Shown here piece by piece: positions 154-20,515 of a stretch of 64,000 nucleotides of DNA. Numbering within the stretch: the stretch's first letter is position 1; every line of letters begins with the position of its first letter. The stretch spans positions 128,001 to 192,000 of the forward strand of contig CAWANJ010000001.1 in NCBI GenBank assembly GCA_963783385.1, given 5' to 3'. The notes beneath the pieces were generated by a model, which saw only the letters and a program-made list of their open reading frames with translations, did not search any database and was not told the DNA's origin. The position numbers were made by a program, and so were the translations under genes. The DNA comes from an uncultured Gemmatimonadales bacterium. Its GTDB lineage: Bacteria; Gemmatimonadota; Gemmatimonadetes; Palauibacterales; Palauibacteraceae.

Positions 154-945
154 ATGAGACAGCCCTCCCGCACCGTACTCCTGGCCGTGGTGGCCGTCCT
201 GGCGCTGGCTCCTGCCGCGAGGGCCCAGGACAGCGCCCCGGCTCCATCGGACTCGGTCGCCGAGCTCACCGGACGGGTGTTCTCGGCCACGACGGGCGAT
301 GTCGTGCGCGGCGCGCAGATCGTGGTGGAGGGGACGGGACTCGGAGCGCTCGCCGACAGCACGGGCCGCTTTCGGATCGCCGGCCTTCCGGCCGGAGACC
401 ACACGATCCAGGTCCGTCGGATCGGGTTCGCCTCCGCCCGGGGGAGGATCCACCTCAAGGCCGGCGCCAGCGTCGACGCGACGTTCGTGCTCGAGGACAC
501 GGTGGTCCAGGTCGAGGGCATCCGGGTCACCGTGAGGCGCGACCCGGCCTCGGCGTTCGGAGACAAGCTCGCGCGCGTCGGCTACTTCCGGCGCAAGGAG
601 CGGGGGCTAGGCTACTTCATGGACCCGGCCCGCGTCGCGGAGCGCTTGCAGCAGTCCCGCGAGACCTCGGATCTGCTGCGCAACGTACCGGGCGTGTCGG
701 TGAGCCGCTCGGTTCTGGGTCAGGCGACCGTGCGCCTGTCACGCGGCCAGTCCTCCTGCGACCCCGTGCTGTACGTGGACGGGAAGCAGTCGCCCGGTCT
801 GCGGGTGGACGACCTTAACCGGGAAGACGTCCTCGCCCTGGAGGTGTACCGGGGTGCCTCCGAGACCCCGCTCTCCTACTCGATGCAGAAGAGCGGCTGC
901 GGCGTGATTCTCATCTGGACCCGGGAGGGCGGCGGCCGGCCGTAG
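154..945 (+). CDS. Exported carboxypeptidase-regulatory-like domain plus TonB plug-like domain protein, no beta-barrel
   Basis: Signal peptide (AARA-QD); 'LTGRV...GALADSTGRFRIAGLPAGDHTIQVRRIGF' CarboxypepD_reg-like; 'DLLRNVPGV...PVLYVDG...DVLALEVYRG...CGVILIWT' plug-like C-terminus, then stop. Confidence 0.8.
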   Translation: MRQPSRTVLLAVVAVLALAPAARAQDSAPAPSDSVAELTGRVFSATTGDVVRGAQIVVEGTGLGALADSTGRFRIAGLPAGDHTIQVRRIGFASARGRIHLKAGASVDATFVLEDTVVQVEGIRVTVRRDPASAFGDKLARVGYFRRKERGLGYFMDPARVAERLQQSRETSDLLRNVPGVSVSRSVLGQATVRLSRGQSSCDPVLYVDGKQSPGLRVDDLNREDVLALEVYRGASETPLSYSMQKSGCGVILIWTREGGGRP

Positions 946-1028: not shown

Positions 1029-2414
1029 TCAGGAACCGTCGACCGGCTGACAGCCCGGGTCGCTGGTAATGCCGCGAGCGTCGCACTCGTCGTCCGTGTA
1101 CGGATAGCGCGGGAACACCTTGTCGAACGACCGCGCGCGCGGGAGCTCGTCCGGGTTGTCGGCCGTGCGTCCGTACTGCCGGGCGTCCAGGTAGGTGAAG
1201 CCTCCCTTGTACATGAGCGAGTAGCGCTTCTCGTAGAGGATCTCCTTGAGCAGGTCTCCGCCGTAGGGGTCGGGGATCGGGTCGAGGCCCCCGTCCTGGG
1301 TCCGGACCTGGTTGATGTCCTGAATGGCCGTCGAGCTGTTGCCCAGGGCGTAGTCCGCCTCGGCGTTGATGAGGAGCAGTTCCACGTTCGTGATGAAGGG
1401 CACGGGATCGGAGAGGTTCACGTAGTTGTTGAACTCCTCCGTCACGGTGATGTTGTCCAGCGTGTAGGACGGGATCGACGTCAGGTTGCGCTGGGCTCGC
1501 AGGTCCCTGGAACCGTCGGACCGCAGTTGCGCATCTCTCCACAGCCGCGGGTGGGCGAACATGTTCGTGCCCCGCTGCTGGGCGAGCGTGTTGACGGCGT
1601 CACCCGACTGGGTGGTGTAGTCGAAGTAAAGCCCCATCTGGAAGTCGCCCGACGGGTCCATGAAGGTGGCCGGCAGGACCGCCTTCACGTCGCTCCAGCG
1701 CCCCATGTACTTGAGCACCCGAACCTTGATGGCCCGGTTCACCTGCAGGAAGGTGGACGGCGTGCTGAAGCCGGCGAAGCCCGGCGGCAGGTCGAAGGGG
1801 AAGGCGCTCCCGCCAGACTGGAGGTGCTGGGCCGCCTCGTCCAGCAGGTTCAGGACGAAGGTGTAGGCGTCCGCGCTGGCCACCAGCGGAGCCAGGTCAC
1901 CCGCCGGATCGCGGTCCACGTCGAGCGGCATGGCCAGCGGATCGTGCATGGTGATGGCTTCCCAGTACGCCTCCGCCATGAAGGTCTGCGCGAAGCCCTT
2001 GGTGGCCTCCTGCTCGGTCGATGACAGCGTGGTGGCCGCATCGGCCGCGTGCACCAGGGTGTAGCCGTTCCGGATCAAGGCGTACTGCGCGTCCCAGAAG
2101 TTGTGGTAGGTGGAGAGGAGCGGGCCCACCAGCCGCTGGGTGATCGTGCGAGGCTCCTCCGGACGCAGGTTGTACACCTCGCGCCCGAACACGCCCAGGT
2201 CCGAAATGAAGCCCCCGGCCCAGTTGCCGCGTTCGGAGCGCACCAGTCCAATGGCCGCGCCCGCGATGGCGGCCCGATCGGGCGTGCTGGTCAGGTTCTG
2301 AACGCTCGGATCGTTGAACGAGGGGGCGTCCAGGCTCTGGCACCCCGCCAGGCTGAGGGCGAGGAGCAGGATTCCGGTCAGGGCCGTGCGCCCGGCGTTG
2401 CTTGCGAACGACAT
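1029..2414 (-). CDS. RagB/SusD-family outer-membrane lipoprotein
   Basis: Lipobox LAGC; 'ELLLINAEA...INQVR...ILYEKRYSLMYKGG' SusD C-terminal motifs; directly downstream of SusC. Confidence 0.9.
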   Translation of the reverse strand: MSFASNAGRTALTGILLLALSLAGCQSLDAPSFNDPSVQNLTSTPDRAAIAGAAIGLVRSERGNWAGGFISDLGVFGREVYNLRPEEPRTITQRLVGPLLSTYHNFWDAQYALIRNGYTLVHAADAATTLSSTEQEATKGFAQTFMAEAYWEAITMHDPLAMPLDVDRDPAGDLAPLVASADAYTFVLNLLDEAAQHLQSGGSAFPFDLPPGFAGFSTPSTFLQVNRAIKVRVLKYMGRWSDVKAVLPATFMDPSGDFQMGLYFDYTTQSGDAVNTLAQQRGTNMFAHPRLWRDAQLRSDGSRDLRAQRNLTSIPSYTLDNITVTEEFNNYVNLSDPVPFITNVELLLINAEADYALGNSSTAIQDINQVRTQDGGLDPIPDPYGGDLLKEILYEKRYSLMYKGGFTYLDARQYGRTADNPDELPRARSFDKVFPRYPYTDDECDARGITSDPGCQPVDGS

Positions 2415-2428
2415 GATCGCCCTCCTCC

Positions 2429-5419
2429 TCAGAAGCTAAGGTCCAGGGTGAGCCACACGCTGCGGCTCGGCGGGAACGGGGCCACGTCCTGCCCCGTGCT
2501 GATGGACTCGAGTCCCCAGTTCGAAACTTCGGGGTCCATCCCGCTGTAGCCGGTGAAACGCAGCAGGTCCCGTCCACTCAGGGTGACGCGGGCCGACCGC
2601 AGCTGGCCCCACAGCGAGCCGAGCAGCGCGGCAGGCACGTCCCAGGAGAGCGACAGTTCCCGGAGCTTCAGGAACGACGCGTCCTCGAGCCAGATGTCGG
2701 TGACCCGGCTCGGGTACAGCCGAAGCCGCATCTCGCCCAATGTCTCCCCGGGCTGGCAGGCCGACACGTTGCACGCGTTGGCGAAGTCCCAGCGGTTCTT
2801 GCTGAGGTCGAAAAGCCAGCCCGTCAGGTTCGCCACCCTGAATCCCTGCTCCCAGTCCAGAAGAGCGTGGAAGGTGATGTCCTTCCATCGCAGGTCGTTG
2901 GAGAAGCCCACCTGGAAGGAGGGACGCGAGCGACCGAGCCGCACGTTCTGGGCGATGCTGCCATCGGCGAGCGTGTCGTTGCCCACCCAGGCGGTCGGAT
3001 CGAAGCCCTGCTCGATCCGGAACGACCCCAGTCCGCCGAAGTTGTTGGGCGGCTGGAAGGGCGGCACGGTCAGCCTGGTGATCTTGGACCGATTCAGCGA
3101 GAAGGTCGTGCGGGTGGTCCAGTTCAGCGTCTTGCCCTTCACGGGCACGGCCGTGAGGTCGGCCTCGAAGCCCCTCTGCCGCATCTCGCCGCCGTTGAAG
3201 TACAGCACGCTGTAGCCGGTCGAGCCCGGCAGATTCCGGCGCACCAGGAGGTCCGAGATGTCCTGCTGGTAGACGGTCAGGGAGAGCTGGGCGCGCTCGT
3301 TCCGGAAGGTGACGTCCAGGCCGCCCTCGTACTCGGTCTGCTTCTCGGGCCGAAGGTCACTGGCCGCCGTGGATCCCGAGATGAGCAGCGTCTGCAGCCC
3401 GCTGTAGTTGGCGCCATTCAGCAGGCTGAACTTCTGCCCGTACTCGGGCTCGTTGCCCGACTGCCCGTACGCGGCCCGCACCTTGACCTCGGCGAGCGGG
3501 TCCGGAAGGCCCGTGATCCGGTACGAAGCCGAGGCCTTGGGATACCAGAAGATCTTGGTCGGGTCGGCGTCGCCGCTGCTCTGGTCGCCGCGGATCCCGG
3601 CGGTCAGGAGCAGCCGCTCCGAGATCAGGACCTCCTCCTGCCCGTAGAACCCGAAGTCCTCGGTTCGCTGCCGGTACTCGACCACGCTGGTGTTGGTGCC
3701 CTTGTCGACGTTGGACAGGCCATCGATGAGGTTGTTGGCGGTGTTGAGGATGTTGTCGGCGTCCCGCCGCTGGTACTCGGCGCCGGCCGAGGTCGTGGCC
3801 CGGACGTTCCCCAGGTAGAGCGTGTGGATGGCACTGAGGCCCGCGTTGGTGAACAGGCTGGTCCCGCCCGCGTTGGACGCGGTGCCCGGCTGGCCGAGCG
3901 TCTGCTCGTACTGCAGGTCTGGCGCCGAGTACAACTTGCCGGTGTGGCCGAACCAGTCGATGCCGCCGGTGAGCTTGATCTCGAGACTCTGCTTGTCACC
4001 GGTCAGCGGGGTGAGGTCGAACGAGCCCGAGCCGAGGAAGCGATTGATGAGCTCGTACTTGTCGACCAGGGTGGCGGTTTGTAGCGGGTTGCTCCTCGAG
4101 AAGGGATTCACCGGGAAGCTGCCGTCGGCGTTCTGCGAGAGGTCCACGAAGGACGGCGAGGACGGCATGGCCATCCAGTAGCTGATGCTGGCGTTGTCGT
4201 TGTTGGTGAGACCGCGCCGCGTCTTGCTGCGAATGTAGTTGGTGTTGACCGAGAGCTGCCCCAGGGTGCCGAACTTCTTCCCGAGGTTGAGGCGCGCGCT
4301 CTCCTTCTCGTAGCCCGTATTGATGATGATGCCGCCGTCGTACTTGCCCAGGCCCGACAGGTAGTACGACGTGTTGTCGAGACCTCCCGAGACGCTGACG
4401 TTCGTCTCGTAGCTCAGCGGCTTGTTTCCGGCCAGCTCCTGCTCGTGGTCGAAGAACGCCCCGGGCTTCCAGTAATCGGCCGCCCGCGGGCCGAACGCGT
4501 CGACCGCCGCCGCCTGCGAACCGAACTTTCGCAGGCCGATCTTGTTGGCGATCCACGGGACACCGGCCGACTGGGTCAGGTGCCAGCGCTGCGTCGCCCC
4601 GAACTGGCCGTGCTTGGTGGTGATGAGAACCACACCGTTGCTGGCCGCGGCGCCGTAGATCGCGGCGGCCGAGGGACCCTTGAGGATCTGGATGCTCTCG
4701 ATGTCGTCGGGGTTGAGGTCCGAGATCCGGTTGGACGAGTTGTCCTCGTGCTCCTGGGGCCCCCGGTCCGCGGCCCGGACCAGTCCCGCCTGTCCTGAGG
4801 GCAGCTGCGCGTTGCTGACGATGACGCCATCGACCACGTAGAGTGGCTGCGAGGTCCCGATGATCGAGCTTACGCCACGCAGCTCGATGCTCATGCCGCC
4901 GCCGGGAGCGCCGCTGTAGCTGCTCACCTTGGCCCCGGCGACCTTGCCGTGCAGCGCATCCTCCATGGTCGTCGCCGCCGGTGCTTCCTTGACGAGCTGG
5001 TCGGCGGTGAGCGTCGAGACCGCGTTGGCCAGGTTGCGCTTCTCGACTCCCGTGGCCCTCCCGCTCACCACGATCTCCTCCATGCCGAGGACGTCCTGCG
5101 TCAGGGTGACCTGTATGCTGGACTGTCCCGCGGGGACGGTCACCACCTTGCGTCGGTAGCCGATGAGCCGGAAAGCCAGCCGTGCGTCACCGGCCGGGAC
5201 GCGGACCCGGAAGGTCCCGTCCGACTCTCCGATCGTACCCAACTGGGTCCCGATCACGCTGATCTGCACCGAGCCGATCGGCTGCGCGGACGTGGCGTCC
5301 ACGACCTTCCCGGTGATGACCCGCGTCTGCTGTCCGGCGGCGCGCCCCGGCAGGACGGCCAGGGCCAGGGCCAGGACGAGGGTCGCGATGATGCGCGTGG
5401 GATCGAACGGTTCTCGCAT
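2429..5419 (-). CDS. SusC/RagA-family TonB-linked outer-membrane transporter
   Basis: Signal peptide, N-terminal extension, plug 'PLYVVDG...DLNPDDIESIQILKGPSAAAIYGAAASNGVVLITTK', 'YSGMDPE', C-terminal Phe. Confidence 0.95.
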   Translation of the reverse strand: MREPFDPTRIIATLVLALALAVLPGRAAGQQTRVITGKVVDATSAQPIGSVQISVIGTQLGTIGESDGTFRVRVPAGDARLAFRLIGYRRKVVTVPAGQSSIQVTLTQDVLGMEEIVVSGRATGVEKRNLANAVSTLTADQLVKEAPAATTMEDALHGKVAGAKVSSYSGAPGGGMSIELRGVSSIIGTSQPLYVVDGVIVSNAQLPSGQAGLVRAADRGPQEHEDNSSNRISDLNPDDIESIQILKGPSAAAIYGAAASNGVVLITTKHGQFGATQRWHLTQSAGVPWIANKIGLRKFGSQAAAVDAFGPRAADYWKPGAFFDHEQELAGNKPLSYETNVSVSGGLDNTSYYLSGLGKYDGGIIINTGYEKESARLNLGKKFGTLGQLSVNTNYIRSKTRRGLTNNDNASISYWMAMPSSPSFVDLSQNADGSFPVNPFSRSNPLQTATLVDKYELINRFLGSGSFDLTPLTGDKQSLEIKLTGGIDWFGHTGKLYSAPDLQYEQTLGQPGTASNAGGTSLFTNAGLSAIHTLYLGNVRATTSAGAEYQRRDADNILNTANNLIDGLSNVDKGTNTSVVEYRQRTEDFGFYGQEEVLISERLLLTAGIRGDQSSGDADPTKIFWYPKASASYRITGLPDPLAEVKVRAAYGQSGNEPEYGQKFSLLNGANYSGLQTLLISGSTAASDLRPEKQTEYEGGLDVTFRNERAQLSLTVYQQDISDLLVRRNLPGSTGYSVLYFNGGEMRQRGFEADLTAVPVKGKTLNWTTRTTFSLNRSKITRLTVPPFQPPNNFGGLGSFRIEQGFDPTAWVGNDTLADGSIAQNVRLGRSRPSFQVGFSNDLRWKDITFHALLDWEQGFRVANLTGWLFDLSKNRWDFANACNVSACQPGETLGEMRLRLYPSRVTDIWLEDASFLKLRELSLSWDVPAALLGSLWGQLRSARVTLSGRDLLRFTGYSGMDPEVSNWGLESISTGQDVAPFPPSRSVWLTLDLSF

Positions 5420-5449
5420 GCTGCGTCCTCCGCTCTCGGTGGTTCACCC

Positions 5450-5475
5450 GCTCGCCGAACCGGAGTTCGGCGAGC
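5450..5475. other. Perfect 11-bp hairpin in the susC leader
   Basis: GCTCGCCGAAC-cgga-GTTCGGCGAGC, about 30 nt upstream of the susC start on the minus strand. Confidence 0.6.
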
Positions 5476-5702
5476 ACGCCTCACGGATCCTGCGGTACGG
5501 ACGCGCCGTCCCGGGGACGGGCGCGTGTGGACGGACTACGATCCAGAAGATCGAGGGCTGGAGAGTCAATGTGGGTCCGGTCGGACGACCGGGGCCGGGA
5601 GCGTGAGATAGAGGCCGGCGCCACCCACCTCGGGGCGGGGACCCGGCCGAAGGCGGCCGCGGACGGCCGCTCGGAAGCGCAAAGCAAGAGTGGGTTAGGG
5701 CG

Positions 5703-5739
5703 ATGCGTATACCGCATAGCGCGCATGGTATACCGCATA
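5703..5739. promoter_or_regulatory. Tandem GntR/FadR-type operator-like palindromes
   Basis: GTATACCGCATA occurs at 5707 and 5728 (21-bp spacing); both copies approximate the palindrome ATGCGGTATACCGCAT; a related TGGCATACCGTGTACGGT lies at 5902-5919. Confidence 0.6.
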
Positions 5740-5753
5740 TTCCTGACTGTCAA
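5725..5753 (-). promoter_or_regulatory. Sigma70-like promoter for susC-susD (pair 1)
   Basis: Minus strand TTGACA (5753-5748), 17-bp spacer, TACCAT (5730-5725). Confidence 0.7.
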
Positions 5754-5872
5754 CCCCGGATATCCGCCATTCGTCGAATCGGGCCGCCGGGATCGATCGT
5801 ACCGGACCGCATTCGACTGGAGGCCGCCCGCGCCCTCATGGGCCATGGACTTACGCCACGGTGGCGCCCCGC

Positions 5873-5901
5873 TTGACGCTCAATGCGGGGGAATCTACGT
5901 T
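5873..5901 (+). promoter_or_regulatory. Sigma70-like promoter for the oxidase operon
   Basis: TTGACG (5873-5878), 17-bp spacer, TACGTT (5896-5901). Confidence 0.6.
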
Positions 5902-6009
5902 TGGCATACCGTGTACGGTCGTCCACTGGCGCCCGCACTTCGTGGTCGCGGGGACTTGTCGACCCGGCCCGGGTGCCCTAGGATCGGGCTTCGCCTCATG
6001 GGAGTCGGA

Positions 6010-6612
6010 ATGCCTGCACCGTCGACGTCATTGGAATGCGCGATCGCGCTGATCGTGCCGCTCATCGCGGCCGTCGGCCCGCTCCCCGGCACCCGGCGGG
6101 ATGTCGCGATGCACAGGGATGCGGCGGTCGTCGTGGCTCGATCCCCGGCTTCCCCCGTCTCGCGCGCGGCCTGCCTACTTCGTCCCCCCCTGTACCGCAT
6201 TCCGCTCAAGGCGGCGGGTTCGGTGACGGGCGCGGAGGGCGCAGCCGTCCTCCACCCGGCCTCCACGCTGTTCGGCGTCTCGGTGACAGCGGATGGTCAC
6301 GACCGGTTCATGGTGGAGGTCACCACGCGGGGCCTGCCGGCACCCGCCAGGCTCGGGGACTTCACGACATACGTGGCGTGGGCGGCTCGCGCCGACCTGA
6401 GCCGGATCGTCAAGCTCGGGGTTCTGGACTCGGAGGGACGTGCCTCCGGGGAGGTATCCTTCGAGAAGTTCCTGGTGTTCGTGACAGCCGAGCCCTCCGG
6501 GGACGTGACGCACAAGTCCGGCCCCATCCTGCTGCAGGGCCTGTCGCCGAGCGGCCAGATGAAGAACATGCTCACCGAGCCTCTCCTGAACGGCGGCATG
6601 CCGCCGTGCTGA
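6010..6612 (+). CDS. Hypothetical exported protein with RskA-like (anti-sigma-K C-terminal) domain
   Basis: ATG at 6010 preceded by GGAG; hydrophobic N-terminus; 'GLPAP...TYVAWA...VKLGVLD...FVTAEP...GPILLQG' resembles the RskA extracytoplasmic pattern; ends in PPC. The ORF-track start at 5527 lies upstream of the promoter and is rejected. Confidence 0.6.
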   Translation: MPAPSTSLECAIALIVPLIAAVGPLPGTRRDVAMHRDAAVVVARSPASPVSRAACLLRPPLYRIPLKAAGSVTGAEGAAVLHPASTLFGVSVTADGHDRFMVEVTTRGLPAPARLGDFTTYVAWAARADLSRIVKLGVLDSEGRASGEVSFEKFLVFVTAEPSGDVTHKSGPILLQGLSPSGQMKNMLTEPLLNGGMPPC

Positions 6613-6637
6613 GCTGTTCCCGGTTCGCTTCATCGAC

Positions 6638-8371
6638 GTGACGTCGAGGAGTCCTTCCCTGCTCGAGTCCCCCCATCTCCGGCCGTGGCTTACCTTGGCC
6701 GCGGCGGCCGTGCTCGCCCTGCAGCCGGCCGCGCTCCGAGCTCAGCATGCCGCGCCGAAGGCACACGACGTGGCGGGCGACACGGCCGAGGTCATGGGCC
6801 GCATGCCCCCCATGCAGGCGGGCATGAACATGCGGCTGGGCCTGGCGAACGAGAGACCCTCCGTGCAGCCCTGGCTGCCGGGCGAGGGCGTCGACCCGTC
6901 GACGCTGCCCGAGGCCGAGCCCAACCACACGATCCGCATGTCGGACGGCGACACCCTGGATCTCACGGCCGGCCTCGTCCGGCGGACTCTCCGGGGCAAG
7001 ACCGTCATCATGTACGCTTTCAACAACCAGTATCCCGGACCGCTCATCCGGGTGAAGCGCGGCACGACCATCGTGGTGCGCTTCCACAACCACCTCGACC
7101 TGCCCTCGACCGTGCACTGGCACGGGCTCCGGATCGAGAACCGGTACGACGGCGTGCCGGGGGTTACTCAGAAGCCCGTACCGCCCGGCGGTGACTTCGT
7201 CTACCACGTGCACTTCCAGGATGCCGGGGTCTACTGGTACCACCCGCACGTCCGGGGCGACATCGAGATCAGCGCCGGCCTGTACGGGAACGAGATCGTC
7301 GACTCGCCGATCTACGGCTTCGACAATCCGGTCAACCGGGAGCAGCAGCTCATGCTCTCGGACCTGCTGTTCGACAAGCACGGGCTCTTCCCTTACGGCA
7401 AGACGATCGCCGACTTCGCCATCATGGGCCGGTTCGGGAATCTGTTCCTGGTGAACGGCGAGCCCGACTTCCACATGAAGATCCACGCGGGAGACGTGGT
7501 CCGGTACTACATCACGGATGTCTCCTCGAGCCGCTCCTACAACGTGGTGTTCGCCGGCGGCAAGACGAAGCTCGTCGGCGCCGACATGGGCGCGTTCGAG
7601 CACGAGGCGTGGGTCCCCTCCATCCCGATCGCCGTCGCGCAGCGTTACGTGGCCGAGGTGCGTTACGACTCGGCCGGTCGCTTCCCGATCCTCAACCGCG
7701 TGCAGGCCATCAACCACGTGAAGGGGACCTTCTTCCCCGAGGTGGACACGCTCGGGATGGTGGAGGTCTCGCCGCAGCCCGCCGACAGCGATTTCTCGAA
7801 GTCCTTCGGCACGCTGCACGACCGCGACTCGGTCCAGGCCGACATCGAGCGGTACCGGAAGTACTTCGACAAGCCCGTGGACAAGCGCCTGGAGCTCACG
7901 GTCAACATCCAGGGTCTGCCGGGCAGGGTGCAGACGCTGATGGCCTCGGACACGATGTACTATCCTCCCGTCGAGTGGAACGACGGGATGCCCAAGATGA
8001 ACTGGATCTCGACCGGTCACGAGGTCCGCTGGATCCTGCGGGATCCGGACACGGGCAAGGAGAACATGGACATCGGCTGGCACTTCAAGACCGGGTCGGT
8101 GGTGAAGATCCGGATCCACAACGATCCCCTGTCCATGCATCCGATGAACCACCCCATCCACTTCCACGGGCAGCGCTTCCTGGTGCTGTCGCGGGACGGG
8201 GTCCCGACCGAGAACCTCGTCTGGAAGGATACCGTGCTCGTCCCGGTGGGCAGCACGGTCGTCATCCTCATGGACGCATCCAACCCCGGCACCTGGTTCG
8301 CGCACTGCCACATCGCGGAGCACCTCGACACGGGCATGAAGATGACCTTCACCGTCGGGCCCTCGCCCTGA
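6638..8371 (+). CDS. Three-domain multicopper oxidase (laccase/CueO-like)
   Basis: All four Cu motifs: HWHG, WYHPH, HPIHFHG, HCHIAEHLDTGM (Met axial ligand); signal peptide; Met-rich N-terminal segment. Confidence 0.95.
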   Translation: MTSRSPSLLESPHLRPWLTLAAAAVLALQPAALRAQHAAPKAHDVAGDTAEVMGRMPPMQAGMNMRLGLANERPSVQPWLPGEGVDPSTLPEAEPNHTIRMSDGDTLDLTAGLVRRTLRGKTVIMYAFNNQYPGPLIRVKRGTTIVVRFHNHLDLPSTVHWHGLRIENRYDGVPGVTQKPVPPGGDFVYHVHFQDAGVYWYHPHVRGDIEISAGLYGNEIVDSPIYGFDNPVNREQQLMLSDLLFDKHGLFPYGKTIADFAIMGRFGNLFLVNGEPDFHMKIHAGDVVRYYITDVSSSRSYNVVFAGGKTKLVGADMGAFEHEAWVPSIPIAVAQRYVAEVRYDSAGRFPILNRVQAINHVKGTFFPEVDTLGMVEVSPQPADSDFSKSFGTLHDRDSVQADIERYRKYFDKPVDKRLELTVNIQGLPGRVQTLMASDTMYYPPVEWNDGMPKMNWISTGHEVRWILRDPDTGKENMDIGWHFKTGSVVKIRIHNDPLSMHPMNHPIHFHGQRFLVLSRDGVPTENLVWKDTVLVPVGSTVVILMDASNPGTWFAHCHIAEHLDTGMKMTFTVGPSP

Positions 8372-8450
8372 ACCGGCGCGGCGTCCTGCAGGAGGCGCGG
8401 CCCACGACGGCCCGCGTCACTTCCTTCTCCCACGAACGAGAGGCGGAACG

Positions 8451-9839
8451 ATGAGAGGAGCGCTACGCAGCGCGGCGGCGGTTGTGGCCGCGGGCCTGTG
8501 GATCGGAGCCCCGATGATGCTCGGGGCCCAGGAGGCCCATCCGGACATGGGCTTCAAGAGCGAGGTCAAGACGGGGGGCAGCCCCAACATCCAGGTGCTG
8601 AGCCACCTCCCGGTGGGCGGCTACTTCGCCGCGGCGGACATCGAGATGGAGCAAGCCCCCGGACGTCCCTACGTATACGTGTCCATGATGGTCGGGACGC
8701 CGGACGGCCCGGGCACGGACGTCGTGGACGTGAGCGACCCGAGCCACGCCAAGGTGATCTACAAGTACCGGATCCCCAACCCCTCCCTGCACCAGGGCTC
8801 GGGCGGCATGGACGGGAAGTACTTCAAGCTGAACGACCACTACTATTACGTGCAGTCGTTCCAGTTTCAGCAGGGAACGCCCGACGCCGACCTCGGCGCC
8901 GTCGTCCTCGACGTAACCGGGCTCCCGGACGCCAAGAAGGTCAAGGTCGTAGCGGAAATCCGGAACCCGGACGAGCCGGGCGGCTTCCACAACATCTTCG
9001 CCTACAAGGCGTCCGATGGCCGTGACCTGCTGTTCACCACGGTCTCCGGCGATCACGCCAACATCTACGACCTGGCCAAGGTCGTGGCCGGGCACCCGGA
9101 CCAGGCGCTGGTCGGCAAGATCCCGGATCCGGTGGGGCAGGCCCAGCGCGCCTTCTATCACGACTTCTACGTGGCCTACGATCCGGCCACGCAGCAGGAC
9201 AAGTTCTACGGCGCCGGGGGGGGCGGTTACTTCGTATACGACGTGACCAAGCCCGAGAGCCCCAAGCTCCTCACCTCGATCCAGGGCGTGGCGGGCGTCA
9301 CCTGGGGTCACACGTTCACCCCCGATCCCAACGGGCGCTTCGCGGTCACCGAGACCGAGTACCAGTACGCGCCGCTCCGCCTGTTCGACCTGCAGCCGGG
9401 TCTCGAGGGCAAGACGTCGACGATCAACCACGCGATCAGCGCGTGGACGGCCGACTGGCGCGACCTCGCGCACAACCACGAGGTCCGCTGGCCGTACGTG
9501 TTCGTCTCCGGGTACGAGGACGGACTTCAGGTGTTCACGATGTACGATCCCTATCACCCCAAGACCGTCGGCTGGCACTACACCTGCGGCTGCAAGCACG
9601 CCGACGGGTACGGTGGTTGGCAGATCCTGCCCAAGCACGGCACCAGCGTGATGCAGGGTGCGTTCGGCGTGGACGTTCGCAATCGGGACGGCCTCATCGT
9701 GCTCAGCGACTCCAACAGCGGACTGTGGGTCTTCCGCATGGACGGATTCACCGGCTGGGATGGCAATGACTGGGGCATGCCTAACATCTCCAGCGTGCAG
9801 GACTGGGATCACGGTCCGGCGTACCAGGCCACACACTAG
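8451..9839 (+). CDS. Exported LVIVD-repeat (choice-of-anchor B-like) beta-propeller protein
   Basis: Signal peptide; repeats 'DVVDVSDPSH', 'VVLDVT', 'FVYDVTKPESP', 'GYEDGLQVF', 'SDSNSGLWVF'; His motifs HNIF, YHDF, GHTF, AHNH. Confidence 0.75.
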   Translation: MRGALRSAAAVVAAGLWIGAPMMLGAQEAHPDMGFKSEVKTGGSPNIQVLSHLPVGGYFAAADIEMEQAPGRPYVYVSMMVGTPDGPGTDVVDVSDPSHAKVIYKYRIPNPSLHQGSGGMDGKYFKLNDHYYYVQSFQFQQGTPDADLGAVVLDVTGLPDAKKVKVVAEIRNPDEPGGFHNIFAYKASDGRDLLFTTVSGDHANIYDLAKVVAGHPDQALVGKIPDPVGQAQRAFYHDFYVAYDPATQQDKFYGAGGGGYFVYDVTKPESPKLLTSIQGVAGVTWGHTFTPDPNGRFAVTETEYQYAPLRLFDLQPGLEGKTSTINHAISAWTADWRDLAHNHEVRWPYVFVSGYEDGLQVFTMYDPYHPKTVGWHYTCGCKHADGYGGWQILPKHGTSVMQGAFGVDVRNRDGLIVLSDSNSGLWVFRMDGFTGWDGNDWGMPNISSVQDWDHGPAYQATH

Positions 9840-9892
9840 CGAGGAAGCGAGTCTCCGGACCGCCCGTCGGCCCGGAGGTCGCCCGGAGCGCC

Positions 9893-11002
9893 GTGTCCGA
9901 CCGCGCGGGTAGCCGCGGTCGGCCGGCACCCGGGAGCGCCGAACATCGCGGCCACGAGGCCGCCGCGCCCCGCACCGGGGCCGCGGCGGCCTCGTCGTAT
10001 CACCCCCTCCCCTTCCATCCGGCGCCCTGGCTCCCGGGCCCGCACGCGCAGACGCTGGCGGGCCGGCTGCTACGCCGGCCCGGGGCGCCCCCCTACCGCC
10101 GCGAGCGCCTGCAAACGCCGGACGGCGACTTCCTGGACCTCGATCGTCTCCACGACGCACCGGCTGCCTCCGACGTGCTGGTCCTGCACGGTCTCGAGGG
10201 CTCCTCGGCGTCGGGGTACGTGCGCGAAGCGGTCATGCGCCTGCGGGAGCGCGGCCTGCACGCTGCCGGCCTGAACTTTCGCTCGTGCAGCGGCGAGCCC
10301 AACCGAGCGCGCCGCTTCTACCATGCCGGCGACACACTCGACCTCGCCTTCGTCCTCGAGCGGCTCGTGGAGGCACGCCGTGGACGGCCCGTCGGACTCG
10401 TCGGCTTCTCCCTGGGCGGCAACGTGTTGCTCCGCTACCTGGAGGAGCGCCAGGCGTCGGCCGCGGAGCAGGTGTCCGCCGCGGTCGCCATCTCGGTGCC
10501 CTTCGACCTGGCCGTGGCCGCCGACAACATGGAGCGACTGCCGGGGAGCCTGTACGGCGCGTCCTTCCTGCGCTCCCTGAGACGCTCGGTCGAGGCCAAG
10601 GTGCGGCGGCGTGGTGTGGACCTTCCCCTGGAAGCCGTCCGCGCCGCCGGCACGCTCCGCGAGTTCGACTGTGCGCTCACCGCCCCGGTGCACGGCTTCG
10701 CGAGCGTGGAAGACTACTACGCCCGGTCCAGCTCGGGGCGAGCGCTGGACCGGGTGCGCGTGCCCACCCTGGTCGTGCACGCTCTCGACGACCCGTTCGT
10801 TCCCGCCTCCGCCCTGCCGGTCGCGGCCCTGTCCGGCAACGCATGGATCCATGCCGCCCTCCACGAGCACGGCGGCCACGTGGGCTTCGTGGAGGGACCG
10901 GCCCCGTGGGAGGCCCTCTTCTGGGCCGAGCGCGAGGCGGCCCGCTTCCTGGCCGCTCCCCCGGCGGCGCCGCCCGACGGTTGTTCGGGTCCCGAGCCGT
11001 AA
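9893..11002 (+). CDS. YheT-family alpha/beta hydrolase
   Basis: 'WLPGPHAQT', 'TPDGDFLDLD', 'HGLEGSS', nucleophile 'GFSLGG', 'DDPF', 'GGHVGF'. Confidence 0.9.
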   Translation: MSDRAGSRGRPAPGSAEHRGHEAAAPRTGAAAASSYHPLPFHPAPWLPGPHAQTLAGRLLRRPGAPPYRRERLQTPDGDFLDLDRLHDAPAASDVLVLHGLEGSSASGYVREAVMRLRERGLHAAGLNFRSCSGEPNRARRFYHAGDTLDLAFVLERLVEARRGRPVGLVGFSLGGNVLLRYLEERQASAAEQVSAAVAISVPFDLAVAADNMERLPGSLYGASFLRSLRRSVEAKVRRRGVDLPLEAVRAAGTLREFDCALTAPVHGFASVEDYYARSSSGRALDRVRVPTLVVHALDDPFVPASALPVAALSGNAWIHAALHEHGGHVGFVEGPAPWEALFWAEREAARFLAAPPAAPPDGCSGPEP

Positions 11003-11009
11003 CTATCCT
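10981..11009 (+). promoter_or_regulatory. Possible sigma70-like promoter for gntR
   Basis: TTGTTC, 17-bp spacer, TATCCT, about 65 nt upstream of the start. Confidence 0.35.
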
Positions 11010-11073
11010 CAAGCCGATCGATTAGCGTCGCCAAACCCCCGGCTCGCGCCGGACATCCACCGGAGTCCACCAC

Positions 11074-11754
11074 GTGCCGACCCTGAGCCACCCGGAGCCG
11101 CTGCGCAACGAGGTCCGCAGGATCGTGCTGGAGAGGGTGCTGAGGGGGGAGCTGGCCCCGGGCGAGGACATCAACGAGACGGAGCTGGCCGAGCAGCTCG
11201 GCATCAGCCGCACGCCGCTCCGGGAGGCCCTCCTGGGCCTGGAGCACGAACGGCTGGTGGGCTCGAGCCAGGGACGCGGCTTCTACGTGTGGCCCCTGAG
11301 CGCCCGCGAGGCTCTCGACCTCTACGACGTCGTGGCCGGACTCGAGGGCTTCGGGCTCCGCAGCCTGGAGGAGGTCCCCGGGGGCCTGGTGGACGACCTG
11401 CGGCGCCTCAACGCCCGACTGGCCGACCTGGACGACGATCCGAGGCAGATGCAGGAGGTCGCGGAGCGCTGGCACGAGACCCTGCTGGCCGCCCTCGACG
11501 ACGTCCCCCTCGACGAGCTCCTCGACCTGGCCCGCAACCGCCTGCACCGCTACGTGCTGTTCGGGTTCGAGTTCGCGGTGGCGTACGGAACGGACGACCG
11601 GGACCTGGCCGTCCGCGAGCACCGCGCCATCGCCGACGCGCTAGAGCGCGGGGAGCTGGAGCGGGCGGCGTCGCTGCTCGAGACGCACCGCCGCCACGGC
11701 ATGGTGCTGCTCGAGCGCTGGCTGGAGGAGGCGAGCGAGACGCGCCCGAACTGA
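11074..11754 (+). CDS. GntR-family transcriptional regulator (FCD domain)
   Basis: wHTH 'GELAPGEDINETELAEQLGISRTPLREAL'; FCD-like 'EHRAIADALERG...H'. Confidence 0.92.
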   Translation: MPTLSHPEPLRNEVRRIVLERVLRGELAPGEDINETELAEQLGISRTPLREALLGLEHERLVGSSQGRGFYVWPLSAREALDLYDVVAGLEGFGLRSLEEVPGGLVDDLRRLNARLADLDDDPRQMQEVAERWHETLLAALDDVPLDELLDLARNRLHRYVLFGFEFAVAYGTDDRDLAVREHRAIADALERGELERAASLLETHRRHGMVLLERWLEEASETRPN

Positions 11755-11805
11755 GTCCCTCCGAGGCGACCTCTCGGCGTTCCGGCCGCGAGGCGACGAC
11801 CGGAT

Positions 11806-11847
11806 GTGACGAAGGGCCGGGGTGATCCCCGGCCCTTTCGTCGTCAC
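11806..11847. terminator. Hairpin terminator between convergent gntR and susD
   Basis: GAAGGGCCGGGG-tgat-CCCCGGCCCTTTC stem with extended flanking pairing. Confidence 0.7.
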
Positions 11848-11913
11848 GAGCCCGGAGCTTGGGCTCCGGCCCGCTTCGTACCCTTCAGTGGCTCCGCTCC
11901 GGGAGCGCGCCCG

Positions 11914-13365
11914 CTACTGCCGGGCGTTCTGCTCGTCGAGCGGCACGGGATACGCCTTGTTCACGTAGCTCTCGTTCGCGCCCTGCGGCAGGTAGGCCGG
12001 ATTGTCCAGCAGGCCGTAGTGCCTGAGATCGATCCAGCGATGCCCTCCCTCGAACAGCAGCGAGAACTGCTTCTCGTACAGAAGCGCGTTCAGGGCCTGG
12101 TCGTGGCTCGTGAACGCGGGCAGCGGATCCAGTTTCCCGGACTTCGTCCGCACCTCGTTGAGGTCCGTCAGCGCCGCCCCGAGGTTGCCGAGCCCAATGT
12201 TGGCCTCGGCCCGCAGGAGGAGGAGCTCCTCGTTGCGGATGATGGGGACGGGCGACGTCAGGCTCGTATACAGGTTGAACCCGATATCCGACCCCGGACC
12301 GCTGAAGCTGCGGAAATTGATCGCGCGCGTCTTGCGAAGATAGCGGTCGTCCATCTGACCGTTGGACTGCATCTGCGCGCTGGCCGAATCGAACGGATTC
12401 GCCCGGATGTTCGGGTCGTCGCTGGGCTGGTACAGACCGTTGGTCTGGTCACCCGATCCGGTACCGTACACATCGTAGGCGCCCAGGTCGAAGGACGCGG
12501 TGCTGTCCACGAACGAATTGGACAGCGCGGTCAGCGCGCCGCTGAAGTCATCCGTGTACACGTCCACCCGCGCCTTGATGGCACGGTTGACGGTAGCGAA
12601 GGTGGCCGGCGTGTCGAAGCCGTCGAAGCCGGTGGTGAGCTGGAACGGGAAGTCCGCGCCGTCCCCGGCCGCCGTCTGGAGCTGCGAATTCGCATCGTCC
12701 AGCAGCGTCTTGATGTGCGCGTACACCGCGGCCTTGTTGACCGCCGGGGCCGGACCCGCGTTCACGTCCGTGCCCACGTCGACCGGGCAGCCCAGGCTGC
12801 CGTCGCAGTTGGTGTCGCGCGTCTCGACGATGACCAGGAAGTCGAGCGCCTGGATCGTCTTCACGAAGCCGATCGTGGCCGCCTTCTCGCCGGCCGACAG
12901 CTGGTCGGTGCCGACCGAGGCCACTCCGTCCAGCACGATGTTGGCCAGCCGGATGTTGGCGTACGGTGCGGCCCAAAGGCCCGCCCCGAAGCCGCCCGCG
13001 TTGAGCGGACCCTGGAGCAGCTCGTTGACGAACCGCGGATCGGCCACGTCGAGGACGTAGGACTCGCGGCCCAGAACGCCCATGGCGGATACCACGCCGA
13101 GCTCGCCGTCCTGGTAACCGCGGTGTCCGATCTCCATCCCCTGGATCGCGGCCGCGATCGAGGCCCGATCCGGTGAGGTCTGGAGGGCGCCCAGGTCCCC
13201 TCCGTTGTAGTTGGGTGTCTCCAGGTTCTTGCAGGCCGCCAGCCCCAGGAGCAGGGCCACGGCCATGACCTGGCTCGCGTGTCTACGCATCGAATGTCGC
13301 ATCGTCGCTCTCCATCCCCCTGAAGTCGTCATCGCCCCTTCGGATCCGCGCGTGTCGGTCCGCAT
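11914..13365 (-). CDS. RagB/SusD-family lipoprotein (paralogue 2)
   Basis: Lipobox LAAC; 'IRNEELLLLRAEA...LNEVR...LLYEKQFSLLFEGGHRWIDLR'; true start may be 13332 or later. Confidence 0.9.
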   Translation of the reverse strand: MRTDTRGSEGAMTTSGGWRATMRHSMRRHASQVMAVALLLGLAACKNLETPNYNGGDLGALQTSPDRASIAAAIQGMEIGHRGYQDGELGVVSAMGVLGRESYVLDVADPRFVNELLQGPLNAGGFGAGLWAAPYANIRLANIVLDGVASVGTDQLSAGEKAATIGFVKTIQALDFLVIVETRDTNCDGSLGCPVDVGTDVNAGPAPAVNKAAVYAHIKTLLDDANSQLQTAAGDGADFPFQLTTGFDGFDTPATFATVNRAIKARVDVYTDDFSGALTALSNSFVDSTASFDLGAYDVYGTGSGDQTNGLYQPSDDPNIRANPFDSASAQMQSNGQMDDRYLRKTRAINFRSFSGPGSDIGFNLYTSLTSPVPIIRNEELLLLRAEANIGLGNLGAALTDLNEVRTKSGKLDPLPAFTSHDQALNALLYEKQFSLLFEGGHRWIDLRHYGLLDNPAYLPQGANESYVNKAYPVPLDEQNARQ

Positions 13366-13368
13366 GGC

Positions 13369-16366
13369 TCAGAACCCCAGGTCCACGCCGAACCAGAAGC
13401 TCCGGCTCGGCGGGTAGGGGGCCACGTCGACGTTCCGACCGACCTGCTGGTTGCCGAAGTTGCTCACTTCGGGGTCGAGGCCCTTGTAGGGGGTGAAGGT
13501 GAACAGGTTGCGACCGCTCGCCGTGAACCGGACGCTCCGGAACGCCCCGCCGAACAGGCTGTGCACGGCGGCGTCCGGAAGCTGGTAGGAGAGCGACACC
13601 TCCCGAACCTTCAGGAACGAGCCCGACTGCGTGTATCCGCGGGCGTAGCCGCCCACGAAGCCGAGCAGGCGCTCGATGCCGTAGCAGTCGGGGAAGCACT
13701 CGGTCACCGGCCGCACGTTGCCGTCCGGCGTCGTGTAGTCCGGGCTGTTCCCGTACGCGTCGTACAGGAGCTGGGTCAGGTTGACGATGTCCTGCCCCTT
13801 GCGCCAGTCGAGCAGCCCGTACAGGCGCAGGCCCGCGTAGCGGAAGTCGTTGGAGAACGAAATCTCGAAGTCCGGGGTCGAGTTGCCCAGCGTCACCAGC
13901 TTCTGGGACCCGTCCGGGTTCGTGCCGGCCGTGCCGACGATCTGCGTGGCCGAGTGGCCCTGCTGAATGTAGAAGGCGCCCAGCGACGTTCCGAACCCGG
14001 CGTTCGACGGAATGAACGCGGGCACCGGCAGCGTCTGCACCCGGCTGCGGTTGAACTGGAAGTTGGTGCGTGACACCCAGCTGAAGTTGCCGGTCGCGAT
14101 GGGCGTGATGCCCAGCGAAGCCTCGCCGCCCCACGTGCGCAGCTCGCCGCCGTTGAAGAACTCGTTGGTGAAGCCCGTCGACGGCGCCACGCGCCGCTGC
14201 AGGATGAGGTCGCTGATCTTGTGGATGTAACCGGTCAGCGACAGCGTGGCGCGGCTGTCCAGGCCCGTGATGTCGGTCCCGAACTCGAACTCCGACTGGC
14301 GCTCGGGCTTGATGGCCGCGTCGCCCACGTTCCCGGGGAGCGCGAAGCCCTGGATCCCCTGAATGTTGCTGGTCACGCCCAGCGTGGTGAACTTCTGCTG
14401 CGCCTGCGGCTCGTTCCCCGTCTGTCCGAACGCGGCGCGCAGCTTGATCTCGTCGAACGGCCCGCCGAGGTTCGGGAACCGGAAGGACGCCGACGCCTTC
14501 GGATAGTAGTACAGGTGGGTGGGATCCCCGTTGGCGCCGCTCTGGTCGGCCCGGACCGCGCCGGTCAGCAGGAGCCGCTGGTTCATCCCCAGGAACTCCT
14601 CCTGGAGATAGAACCCGAAGTCCTTGACCTTGACCCGGTTCTGGAAGACCGCGATCTGTGTCCCCGCGTCGACCTTCCTCAGGCCGCCGTTCAGGTTCTG
14701 GGCCACGGTGCGGTCGATGTTCTGGTCGTTGCTCGAGTAGCTGGCTCCGGCCAATGTGGTGGCCGTGAAGGAGCCTGAGGACGGCGTGTACTTGTAGACG
14801 CCGTTGAGCTGGGCGGTCAGAGCCAGGTTGTTCGACTTGCTCAGCACCTCGGTGCCGGGCAGGCCGTCGGACGGCTCGAAGAAGACGCTCGGCGGAGAGA
14901 ACACGTCGTTCGTCTGGCCGAACCAGTCGGCCCCGCCGTTGAACACGAACTTGAGGTCGTTGTTGTCGTTGGCCACCGGATGGAACTCGGCGTTGGTCGA
15001 GCCCAGCAGGTGCCAGACGTTCTCGTCGTTCTGCAGCAGCGCCGCCGTCTGCAGCGGGTTGCTCAGGTTCCCCTGCGACACGTTCGGGATGAAGTTCCCC
15101 TGCGCGTCCTCCAGGGGCACGAAGCTCGGCGTGGCCGACAACACCATGTAGTAGCTGGTCTGGCTATTGTCGTTGTTGGTCAGGCCGCGGTTCGCCCACG
15201 TGCGGATGATGTTGCTGTTCAGCGTGATGTTGAACAGGTCGCCGAACTTCTGGGTCAGGTTCACCCGCCCCGACTCCTTCTCGAAGCCGGTGTTCTGGAC
15301 GATCCCCTTGTCCTTCCTGGCCAGGAGCGACCCGAAGTACTGCGTCTGGTCCGTGCCGCCGCTCGCCGAGCCGGAGCCCTGCCAGGACGGGTAGTGGTGC
15401 CCGGCCAGCTCCTTCTCGTGATCGAAGAACTTGCCGCCGTTGGCCGTATACACGGCCCCGAGCCCCGTCGCGTCCTGGGCATCCTGGGCGGAAGTGAAGC
15501 GGCGGGCGCCGATCGTGTTGGACAGCGAGTAGGTCCCGAGCTGGCCGCTCGAGCCGCACCCGCGGCTTGCCGGCCGAGCCATGCTTGGTGGTGATGATGA
15601 CCACGCCGTTGGACGCCTTGCCGCCGTAGATGGCCGCCGCGGCCGCACCCTTGAGGACCTCGATGCTGGCGATGTCCTCGGGGTTGAGGTCGGCCAGGCG
15701 GTTGACCGCGTTGTCCTGGCTGGAAGCGTTCTGGCCGCCCGACGCGGACGTGATCGCGTTGGCGTCCGAGGCGATGGCCGCGTCGCTCACGATCTGCCCG
15801 TCGATGACGAACAGCGGCGAGGCGGACGCGTTGATCGAGGAGATGCCGCGCAGCTGCACCTGCACGCCGCCGCCCGGGGCGCCGGAGTTGGAGGAGATCG
15901 TGGCTCCGGCCACCTTGCCGGCCAGCGCCTTGTCCACCGTCTCCTGCGGGACCTCGTTGAGCTGCTCGCTGTTGACCGTCGAGATCGCGTTGGCCGCGTT
16001 CTGCTGCGAGATCTGCGTGGCCTTACCGGTGACGACCAGCTCCTGCACCTGCAGGTAGTCGGTGAACAGCTTCAACGTGATCTGATTCGTTCCGGCCGGA
16101 ACCCTCACCTGGCGGCTCCGGTAGCCGATCCTGGAGATCTGCAGCGTGACCGGACCCGACGGCACGCCGTTGAGGACGAAGGTGCCGTTGTCCTCGCCGA
16201 GCACGCCGATCCGTGTGCCCATGACGATGACGTTCGGATTGGCCACCGGCTGCGCGCTGACGCTGTCGACGACCGTTCCACGGATGGTGCGTTCCTGGGC
16301 GTGCGCGGGTGTGACCGCGAACGCCGCGAGAACGAGTGTTACGAGCAAACCGAGCTTGTACCTCAC
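13369..16366 (-). CDS. SusC/RagA TonB-linked transporter (paralogue 2), +1 frameshift near 15550
   Basis: GTG at 16366 with GGGGAGG RBS; N-terminal part and plug in ORF 15164..16537, barrel in ORF 13369..15648; deleting one base from TCGA at 15549-15552 joins them (RL-SGQLGTY). Confidence 0.9.
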
Positions 16367-16633
16367 GTGCCTCCCCCTGTCCGAGGTTAGGCGGAGCGGG
16401 AGCCCGAAGGGTCCACCAGCCCGGAGGGCCGGGACGGACGCGCGACGGGCAAGCGAACGGGACCGATGTCTATAGCGGAACCGCCCCGGCACCCGGCAAT
16501 TCGGGAGAGGCGGAGCGAGCCATACGTGCAGCCGCACCTCGGCCGAGGGGATCGGCGAGATGGGTCGCTACAGGCCGTGTCGCCGGGGCGACGCGGCGCG
16601 GAAGTGGACGGCACGAACATCAGCATTGCGTGT

Positions 16634-16661
16634 ATATTGTGTTTTACTGGAGGTGTGTCAA
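16634..16661 (-). promoter_or_regulatory. Possible promoter for susC-susD (pair 2)
   Basis: Perfect TTGACA (16661-16656) followed by an AT-rich tract; the -10 is weak (CAATAT at 16-bp spacing). Confidence 0.4.
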
Positions 16662-16723
16662 GACTTCGTAACGGACCGACTGGGACATTTCGTCCTAATC
16701 GGTCCTCGGCGCCGGGGACGCTG

Positions 16724-17976: not shown

Positions 17977-18216
17977 GTGCTCCTCTCCTCCGGTGGTGTG
18001 CGCATCGTCCCGGTGACCGGCGCCCGCGGCGCCGGGAGGCTAAGGTACCGCTACGACCGGCCGAATCAACCGGGGCGTCGCGGCGGCCGCCTCTCCTGAA
18101 ACTCCCGGCGGCGCCCAGCCGTAGAGAGGATCGAGGCGGGCGTGCGTCCGCCTCAGGCGCGCATTGTCGCGCCGCGGCGCCCGACCACCGACATCCACCA
18201 GCCCGAGGAAGGGACC

Positions 18217-18540: not shown

Positions 18541-18593
18541 GCCGCCCCGCCGCCCGACCCCCGGGCCGCGGCCCCGCCGCCGGGACGCCCCCC

Positions 18594-19835: not shown

Positions 19836-19992
19836 GGCGACCTCCGGGCCGTTCGGGACGTGCTGCCGGCCCGCGCAGAGGAGCCGCCGCGTAGGGGCGC
19901 CACCCCTCCTCGCGACGGGGCCGCGAGACCGCTACGGTACCGGCCCGACGCATCCCACGGCAATCGAGGTCCGTACGAGGAGGCGACCGCGC

Positions 19993-20463: not shown

Positions 20464-20486
20464 GGCTCCGGGCCGATCCGCCGGGG

Positions 20487-20515
20487 TTTACACTCCTGCG
20501 GCTCCCACCTATGGT
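20487..20515 (+). promoter_or_regulatory. Sigma70-like promoter for the lemA operon
   Basis: TTTACA, 17-bp spacer, TATGGT. Confidence 0.6.

Follow-up and report, generated by a model that had tools for sequence, protein, structure and literature searches.

A predicted exported multicopper oxidase module with a propeller or an amidohydrolase as candidate partner, found beside SusCD importers in an uncultured Gemmatimonadales bacterium

The window analyzed here is a stretch of 64,000 nucleotides (G000:C1:128001-192000) from the genome of an uncultured Gemmatimonadales bacterium, designated G000, which comprises 3.54 Mb with 71% GC in nine contigs; near-identical DNA occurs mostly in salt-marsh and sediment metagenomes. 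An earlier note on this DNA had read a 15-kb block of the window, which includes two SusCD importer pairs, as a single system similar to a polysaccharide utilization locus (PUL). The comparison across genomes indicates that this block is not one conserved locus, and that the conserved core is a trio of genes encoding a small domain (X), a multicopper oxidase (MCO), and a propeller protein. The best reading is that the partner of the oxidase is an interchangeable metallohydrolase, either the propeller or an amidohydrolase. The trio is arranged as follows, with gaps of 25 bp between X and MCO and 79 bp between MCO and propeller:

5998..6612, plus strand: X, small domain, predicted to be exported and with a faint likeness to RskA_C; starts at either 5998 or 6010
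6638..8371, plus strand: MCO, three-domain multicopper oxidase with a signal-peptide-like N-terminus; three Cu-oxidase domains and four copper motifs
8451..9839, plus strand: propeller, predicted seven-bladed and His-lined; likely metallohydrolase, as judged from its model and conserved residues

The alternation of partners was detected among 127 de-duplicated X domains, for which a fusion was counted only by an in-frame match of a hidden Markov model. X is a separate gene in 76 cases and is fused in frame to the N-terminal end of the MCO in 51. Separate X genes have a propeller within 1.3 kb in 69 cases, an amidohydrolase in one, and neither in six, three of which are at contig ends. None of the 51 fused X-MCO genes is accompanied by a propeller, and an amidohydrolase lies within 1.3 kb of 41 of them and within 3.5 kb of 44. 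The same rule applies to 28 loci selected by the MCO alone, and L120, L125, L140, and L159 each display both architectures side by side in one genome. On a midpoint-rooted tree of 117 MCO cores, the architectures change four times, compared to at least 27 times in 200 shuffles; the two forms thus mostly follow separate lineages and represent few events. Because X is fused to the MCO in paralogous loci, the sequences suggest that it is likely a structural partner of the oxidase.

The MCO contains the motifs HWHG (160), WYHPH (200), HPIHFHG (505), and HCHIAEHLDTGM (556), along with the axial Met of the type 1 (T1) copper, and all four copper motifs are intact in 120 of 127 homologous open reading frames (ORFs). 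It is similar to the bacterial three-domain MCOs (CueO, the Thermus laccase, and the Pseudomonas/Paenibacillus proteins 6VOX, 6VOW, and 4F7K) in its three cupredoxin domains, T1/T2/T3 ligands, and axial Met, but differs from them in its scores below the model cut-offs, in its apparently obligate X partner, fused or separate, and in its fixed propeller or amidohydrolase neighbor. The nearest NCBIfam models are those of CueO, with a score of 138.9 (cut-off 525), and CopA, with 132.1 (cut-off 478.95), and the laccase cut-off is not reached either. The N-terminal segment of the protein is Met-rich.

As for X, it has no Pfam match, and a sequence-profile search of the PDB gave nothing useful. A faint match to RskA_C appears in two of 25 X members (best E 0.0014), and in the Atlas X falls into an RskA_C cluster (0.83), which is a lead only. 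Its likeness to the C-terminal domain of the RskA anti-sigma-K factor (PF10099) consists of a faint profile and embedding resemblance, and X differs from that domain by traveling with, and fusing to, an oxidase and by the lack of an adjacent sigma factor, as no extracytoplasmic function (ECF) sigma factor was seen among the window ORFs or the recurring neighbor clusters scanned. In many separately encoded X proteins the C-terminus is a Met/His/Cys tail (MHTMAGHG...C), which is absent from the fused form, and the X of this genus ends in NGGMPPC; the tail could possibly bind a metal or form a disulfide link to the MCO.

The amidohydrolases that accompany the fused form have signal-peptide-like ends and keep the HxH motif in 49/49 cases and the C-terminal Asp motif in 44/49. 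They distantly resemble phenylurea hydrolase, Arg carboxypeptidase, and Xaa-Pro dipeptidase.

The propeller has no Pfam match, PF08309 (LVIVD) included, and scores 24.3 against TIGR04312 (choice-of-anchor B, cut-off 100); Atlas clusters and some NCBI names label its relatives as LVIVD. Its family is large, with 2465 proteins among 8000 scored. A structural model built from 110 sequences (pLDDT 95.1, pTM 0.94) aligns in VIA to seven-bladed propellers with Z about 31 and a root-mean-square deviation (rmsd) of 2.4-3.4 over about 290-325 residues. Asp63, Asp121, His180, His237, His287, and His341 are conserved in 105-109 of the 110 sequences, the four His in 107-109, and Glu303 is conserved as well. 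In the secondary structure, these residues map to the first strand of six consecutive blades or close to it, so that they would cluster at the mouth of the axis.

The sole PDB sequence-profile match of the propeller is Sb-PTE, the haloalkylphosphorus hydrolase of Sphingobium sp. TCM1 (PDB 5HRM, 5IOJ), also a seven-bladed propeller, with E values of 0.0032, 0.00067, and 2.5e-5 as the profile was widened. In Foldseek, 5HRM ranks seventh among WD40 proteins, with 14% identity. The segment GSHFNDV of blade 6 in 5HRM aligns by eye with AHNHEV in the window protein, and only blade 6 can be aligned in this way, so that for the conserved D63, D121, H180, H237, H287, E303, and H341 an equivalence to the ligands of Sb-PTE may be suggested for that blade at most. 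The histidine of GSHFNDV occupies position 475 of the 5IOJ chain, which we take to be a metal ligand. We know of no MCO partner of Sb-PTE. Its structure paper refers, in the title, to a binuclear metal center in a seven-bladed propeller (via PMC11656708). From its sequence, the window propeller is likely a metal-dependent hydrolase with two metals.

Other members of the family deviate from this pattern. The blade histidines are missing from the consensus of more distant full-length relatives, including a sister subfamily with 25-38% identity (P0129, P0132, P0137, P0138, P0143, P0148, P0151, and P0158). Tandem arrays with up to ten paralogous propellers occur in L070, L126, L074, L106, L214 (G161), and L208/L212/L213 (G081); some share one X-MCO and some interleave with susCD pairs of the SusC1 clade, suggesting substrate diversification. 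Two members of the sister subfamily (L070:1856-3169 and L088:4859-6097) are divergent copies at the array edges and possibly noncatalytic partners.

The remaining genes of the region are the following:

ending at about 157: S15 peptidase gene, upstream of the Plug-only gene, in the island with susCD1 and the trio
154..945, plus strand: CarboxypepD_reg and Plug-only protein, from the island shared with susCD1 and the trio
1029..2414, minus strand: susD1, SusD lipoprotein; PF07980 24.5 bits (cut-off 23.1), lipobox Cys
2429..5419, minus strand: susC1, SusC/RagA-family TonB-dependent transporter; TIGR04056 481.7 bits (cut-off 368.25)
9893..11002, plus strand: YheT-like alpha/beta hydrolase; NF008218 228.7 (below the cut-off of 267)
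11074..11754, plus strand: GntR/FCD regulator with a GntR helix-turn-helix (HTH) and an FCD domain; one of several paralogs
11914..13365, minus strand: susD2, SusD lipoprotein; PF07980 passed; true start probably downstream of 13365
13369..16366, minus strand: susC2, split in two frames; TIGR04056 on two pieces (209.1 and 232.6)

The linkage of these genes to the trio was surveyed in 79 GTDB propeller stretches, the best of 699, drawn from records of Gemmatimonadota, Rhodothermales, and Acidobacteriota with flanks of at most 10 kb, many of them cut by contig ends and several derived from one genome. Of these loci, 61 have X and 60 the MCO; susC is found in seven, susD in six, and gntR and yheT in one each, the latter two in L063, a duplicate of the same-genus locus L031. 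The 28 related loci chosen by the MCO (L031-L058) contain susCD, yheT, and gntR only in two same-genus genomes. Further information came from a sample of 150 genomes of the phylum, in which the scoring of propeller and SusD was restricted to at most 11 candidates per genome, which makes the array counts lower bounds. A propeller was found in 41 genomes, all 41 of which encode X, within 7 kb in 40; overall, X is present in 68 genomes. A SusD1-clade gene occurs in 64 genomes, 19 of which also have a propeller, and the two presences are unassociated (Fisher p 0.58, kin not being independent). Propeller and SusD1-clade gene are within 15 kb in three of these 19 genomes, and 9 of 92 SusD1-clade copies, all from three genomes, are near X or a propeller. 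No GntR with more than 38% identity to the local one was detected outside G000 in this sample.

The genome G001, which belongs to the same genus and is 92% complete, clarifies how the block is composed. On a single contig, the gene upstream of the S15 peptidase joins directly to yheT, gntR, and trxC, without the block of peptidase, plug, susCD1, and trio, and without susCD2; no orthologs of the MCO and the propeller were found in G001. Because G001 carries yheT-gntR without either insert, yheT-gntR is the backbone and the 15-kb region consists of this backbone plus two inserts, either gained or lost. The gene order is kept in G003 and G002. Thus, as indicated by both the 79-locus survey and G001, the trio moves independently of susCD, and it is mainly in this genus that it is linked to susC. 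A PUL would keep its importer, enzymes, and regulator together from genome to genome, which was not seen here, and the conserved PUL-like locus including yheT and gntR that the earlier note had proposed finds no support in the counts for susC (7/79), gntR (1/79), and yheT (1/79), in the Fisher result, or in G001. A trio rarely linked to susCD or gntR is also the outcome that the note had named beforehand as speaking against its proposal.

The link between importer and trio is nevertheless real but loose, and it is the surviving part of that proposal. Six of the seven susC genes near propellers belong to the SusC1/2 clade, with 39-48% identity to it outside the genus, as opposed to mostly 24-32% to the other five susC of G000. 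In L065 and L069 a SusC1-clade pair immediately precedes X-MCO-propeller in the same orientation, L082 differs only by one extra propeller between the pair and the trio, and in G081 and G161 such pairs are interleaved with propeller arrays. G000 holds seven susC genes in total. The other five loci have S58, M1, S15, M28, and M50B peptidases and an amino-acid permease nearby, and no glycoside hydrolase was seen near them in the 69 ORFs scanned of 106, so pairs free of carbohydrate-active enzymes (CAZymes) are the rule in G000. The flanks of SusD1-clade pairs (18 loci, 64 nearest ORFs) contain peptidases at 10 loci (a raw count), sets of arginase, deiminase, and amidohydrolase genes at two, and no glycoside hydrolase. 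SusC1 scores as SusC/RagA, far below the cut-offs of siderophore, heme, and B12 receptors. Peptide import is established for the SusCD pair RagAB (10.1101/755678), and, by analogy with this precedent and because of the peptidase-rich flanks, peptides are the likely cargo of susCD1 and susCD2. RagAB of Porphyromonas gingivalis is likewise a SusC/RagA-family transporter with a SusD lid and without CAZymes, but it belongs to another phylum and has no oxidase module, and the ligand of the window pairs is deduced from their neighbors only. Similarly, the Bacteroidota PULs share with the window the tandem susC-susD, a nearby regulator, and predicted exported enzymes, but the window has no CAZymes, and the association of its importer with the enzyme module and the regulator is not a stable one. 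In L227 (G001 C6:9055-15913) and L202, SusD1-clade pairs adjoin an S15 (CocE/NonD-like) peptidase, like in the window, and in L210 and L211 they are beside amidohydrolase, arginase-family, and agmatine-deiminase-family genes.

The promoters of the region provide a second connection between importers and trio. Three were recognized:

5707..5753, minus strand: susC1 promoter, TTGACA-17-TACCAT, overlapped by operator-like sites at 5707-5718 and 5728-5739
5873..5916, plus strand: predicted trio promoter, TTGACG-17-TACGTT, found by eye and below the scanner threshold, followed by an operator-like site at 5905-5916
16624..16661, minus strand: predicted susC2 promoter, TTGACA-16-CAATAT, found by eye, overlapped by an operator-like site at 16624-16635

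The four operator-like sites have the form YATnnnGTRTAY and overlap or follow the -10 boxes. The susC1 promoter is the sole match of the promoter scanner, with 1.1 expected by chance, and the trio promoter with its site is kept in G003 and G002, where the flanking DNA diverges. A matrix trained on the four window sites only, when applied to the 19.9-kb locus of G002, returned the trio, S15 peptidase, susC1, and susC2 promoters as its top four. Among 1786 upstream regions of G000, two other susC genes rank 6 and 7 and the S15 peptidase 14; the remaining three susC rank 251, 813, and 882, two of them with miscalled starts, and the local gntR, with no operator-like site in its upstream region, ranks 988. 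The susC3 site is kept in G002. Since the operator marks distant susC loci too, it points to a regulon and not to a locus, and a GntR-type regulon joining the trio, the susCD pairs, and the S15 peptidase is predicted for this genus from the sequences. The FadR consensus is GTM-N0-1-KAC (PMC4494728); two of the four sites have a GTATAC core, which agrees with it, and two deviate. The putative binder is some GntR-family protein, of which G000 has several paralogs. The best match outside the training set (G000 C6:132794-135248) is between a divergent 327-aa GntR-HTH gene and a saccharopine-dehydrogenase-like gene; this site is kept in G003, and the GntR-HTH gene is an alternative candidate regulator. 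Another operator-like site, rank 12 of 1786, is upstream of genes for a DUF305 protein and a 627-aa LVIVD-like protein (G000 C7:117477-120190, L149), where a weak match to Sb-PTE is seen as well.

The earlier interpretation is partly supported overall. Gene positions, the divergent orientation of susCD1 and trio, and the two intergenic gaps are as the note had given them; the absence of CAZymes from the block held for the 17 ORFs scanned of positions 1-25190, in which no glycoside hydrolase, lyase, or esterase CAZyme family was found, and the view of the importers as non-carbohydrate agrees with their flanks, which have peptidases and no glycoside hydrolase. As such pairs are usual in G000, SusCD without CAZymes loses its value as a distinctive feature and, alone, is no mark of an unusual locus in such genomes. 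The coregulation of susCD1, susCD2, and trio through one operator is retained as a prediction for this genus only. Operator-like sites were claimed for both divergent promoters; four sites in three promoters exist, but the second divergent partner, which faces susC2, is trxC, outside the unit. The labels LVIVD and RskA-like reflect resemblances, with no Pfam match for either protein, and of the copper enzymes proposed as oxidizers the MCO is intact, but the propeller resembles a metallohydrolase more than a second copper oxidase.

The second paralogous susCD is present, its SusD2 being 38% identical to SusD1, but susC2 is split. The reading frame is broken by one extra base at 15551 in the G000 assembly; the gene is intact in G003, in G002, and in contigs of the runs X1 and X2. 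These contigs cover the 16 kb, differ at 13 other letters, lack the extra base, and may represent the source population of G000. An assembly error is the most likely explanation, and a strain-specific lesion may be the alternative; a programmed frameshift was ruled out, as the extra base is missing from G003, G002, X1, and X2. Two of three clustered susC at G000 C1:527184-537450 also appear frame-split, which fits indel errors in the assembly. Short CarboxypepD_reg and Plug proteins without a barrel form a family (window 154-945; G000 C1:524701, C1:530868, and C9:884641-887147), often beside susC loci. The backbone genes at window 16721-25193 (trxC, PhzF-like, CitMHS-like transporter, EVE, LemA, DUF2207, AhpC-like, and AAA_33 kinase-like) are syntenic in G001-G003.

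Our explanation, advanced tentatively and with a little less than even confidence, is that X-MCO is exported, as is a metallohydrolase, that the two process one substrate in series, and that, in this genus, they are derepressed together with a peptide-type SusCD. It rests on linkage, X-MCO fusion, partner alternation, conserved ligands, and conserved promoter sites, from which we infer export, contact between X and MCO, hydrolase activity, a shared substrate, and repression by a GntR-family protein. The MCO, with all its copper ligands and partnered by X, would work outside the cytoplasm with the propeller, which, as a two-metal hydrolase, would cleave the substrate; the MCO would then oxidize the product and pass the electrons to oxygen. 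As substrate, an aromatic or amine compound with an amide or peptide linkage would be most likely, and the phenol or aniline released by hydrolysis would be the substrate of the MCO. In this genus, the trio operon would be derepressed along with the peptide-type SusCD pairs and the peptidase, the operator-like sites being bound by some GntR-family repressor. A broader claim, possible but doubtful, is that X-MCO, found in Gemmatimonadota, Rhodothermales, and Acidobacteriota, constitutes a hitherto undescribed exported oxidase of two parts that depends on a metallohydrolase, for which two unrelated folds, the seven-bladed propeller and the amidohydrolase barrel, are used.

Several observations weigh against this explanation. 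The X-domain set is partly selected by partner (L063-141 by the propeller, L155-194 by its absence), and the two architectures are largely lineage-bound, so that the swap may be one or few events. Propellers also occur without X or MCO nearby and in arrays of up to ten, and the RNA run X20 gave short pieces only over the locus. The structure searches rank generic WD40 propellers first, the Foldseek alignment to 5HRM has an rmsd of 11.6, and 5HRM is missing from both VIA top-50 lists, an absence that excludes nothing. An unrelated LVIVD-like protein of G000 also matches 5HRM (E 0.0015); the match to Sb-PTE is suggestive and not proof, because the generic repeat drives part of the score. The peptidase count near SusD1-clade pairs is a raw one. 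Finally, YATnnnGTRTAY, a pattern derived from the four window sites themselves, is not enriched genome-wide (21 seen, 15.5 expected), and operator-like sites are also conserved at promoters of unrelated genes.

Among the other explanations, copper handling is unlikely. The MCO would be a cuprous oxidase, X would hand over copper, the propeller would be a metal sink, and the SusCD link would be incidental, which agrees with CueO and CopA as the nearest models, with the Met-rich segment of the MCO, with the MHTMAGHG...C ending of many split X, and with a trio that travels independently of susCD. However, the MCO is far under the cut-offs of these models (138.9 of 525 and 132.1 of 479), the recurring neighbor clusters scanned include no copper ATPase, Cus, or CueR family, and the X of this genus is without the His tail; moreover, the amidohydrolase partner and the GntR-type sites common to susC are left unexplained. 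Rather improbable is a propeller that is itself a copper or other redox enzyme, with X-MCO as its electron sink or maturation partner. In nitrous-oxide reductase and methanethiol oxidase, histidines are supplied from the inner propeller strands, and the four near-invariant His on the axis, the tight linkage to a copper enzyme, and the arrays sharing one X-MCO (L070, L126) would suit such a role. The mixed His/Asp/Glu set is better suited to a binuclear hydrolase, the alternative partner has a hydrolase fold, and no copper propeller enzyme appears among the listed sequence or fold matches, although an absent entry excludes nothing.

The model of the earlier note, in which the entire 15-kb block, YheT and the local GntR included, would be dedicated to an imported non-carbohydrate, is likewise rather improbable. 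The order kept in G003 and G002, the operator common to three promoters, the same SusC clade in 6/7 susC-bearing loci, with direct upstream and co-oriented placement in L065, L069, and L082, and the proximity within 15 kb in 3/19 genomes that have both genes speak for it; they are outweighed by the scarcity of susC, gntR, and yheT in the 79 loci, by the 9/92 SusD1-clade copies near X or propeller in three genomes, by G001 with yheT-gntR and neither insert, by the phylum sample without a comparable GntR outside G000, and by the operator at distant susC loci. Very improbable is metal scavenging, in which SusCD would import a metal chelate, the hydrolase would cut the chelator, and the MCO would shift the oxidation state of the metal. 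Ferroxidase and Mn-oxidase MCOs offer a precedent, and TonB-dependent import, hydrolase, and oxidase are all present, but SusC1 is of the SusC/RagA type and far under the siderophore, heme, and B12 receptor cut-offs, the context is peptidase-rich, and the sites resemble those of GntR and not a metal-regulator consensus.

The preferred explanation, an exported X-MCO acting in series with a metallohydrolase, combines component parts that belong to known kinds; the X-MCO unit and the partner swap are apparently new, as no published description of them was found in titles and abstract openings or in passages of PMC11277490 and PMC11656708. The fusion and the swap lead to two assignments that can be tested, namely that X is a subunit of the MCO and that the propeller is a metallohydrolase. 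Because X occurs in 68 of the 150 sampled genomes, the module is common in a widespread and poorly cultured phylum, in which X and the propeller are both unannotated. If the broader claim is true, the propeller family that gave rise to the flame-retardant-degrading Sb-PTE would have its native role disclosed, and the claim would add a hydrolyze-then-oxidize step to the turnover of peptide-linked or aromatic-amide compounds by abundant uncultured bacteria, a turnover that in some lineages would be fed by a dedicated SusCD clade.

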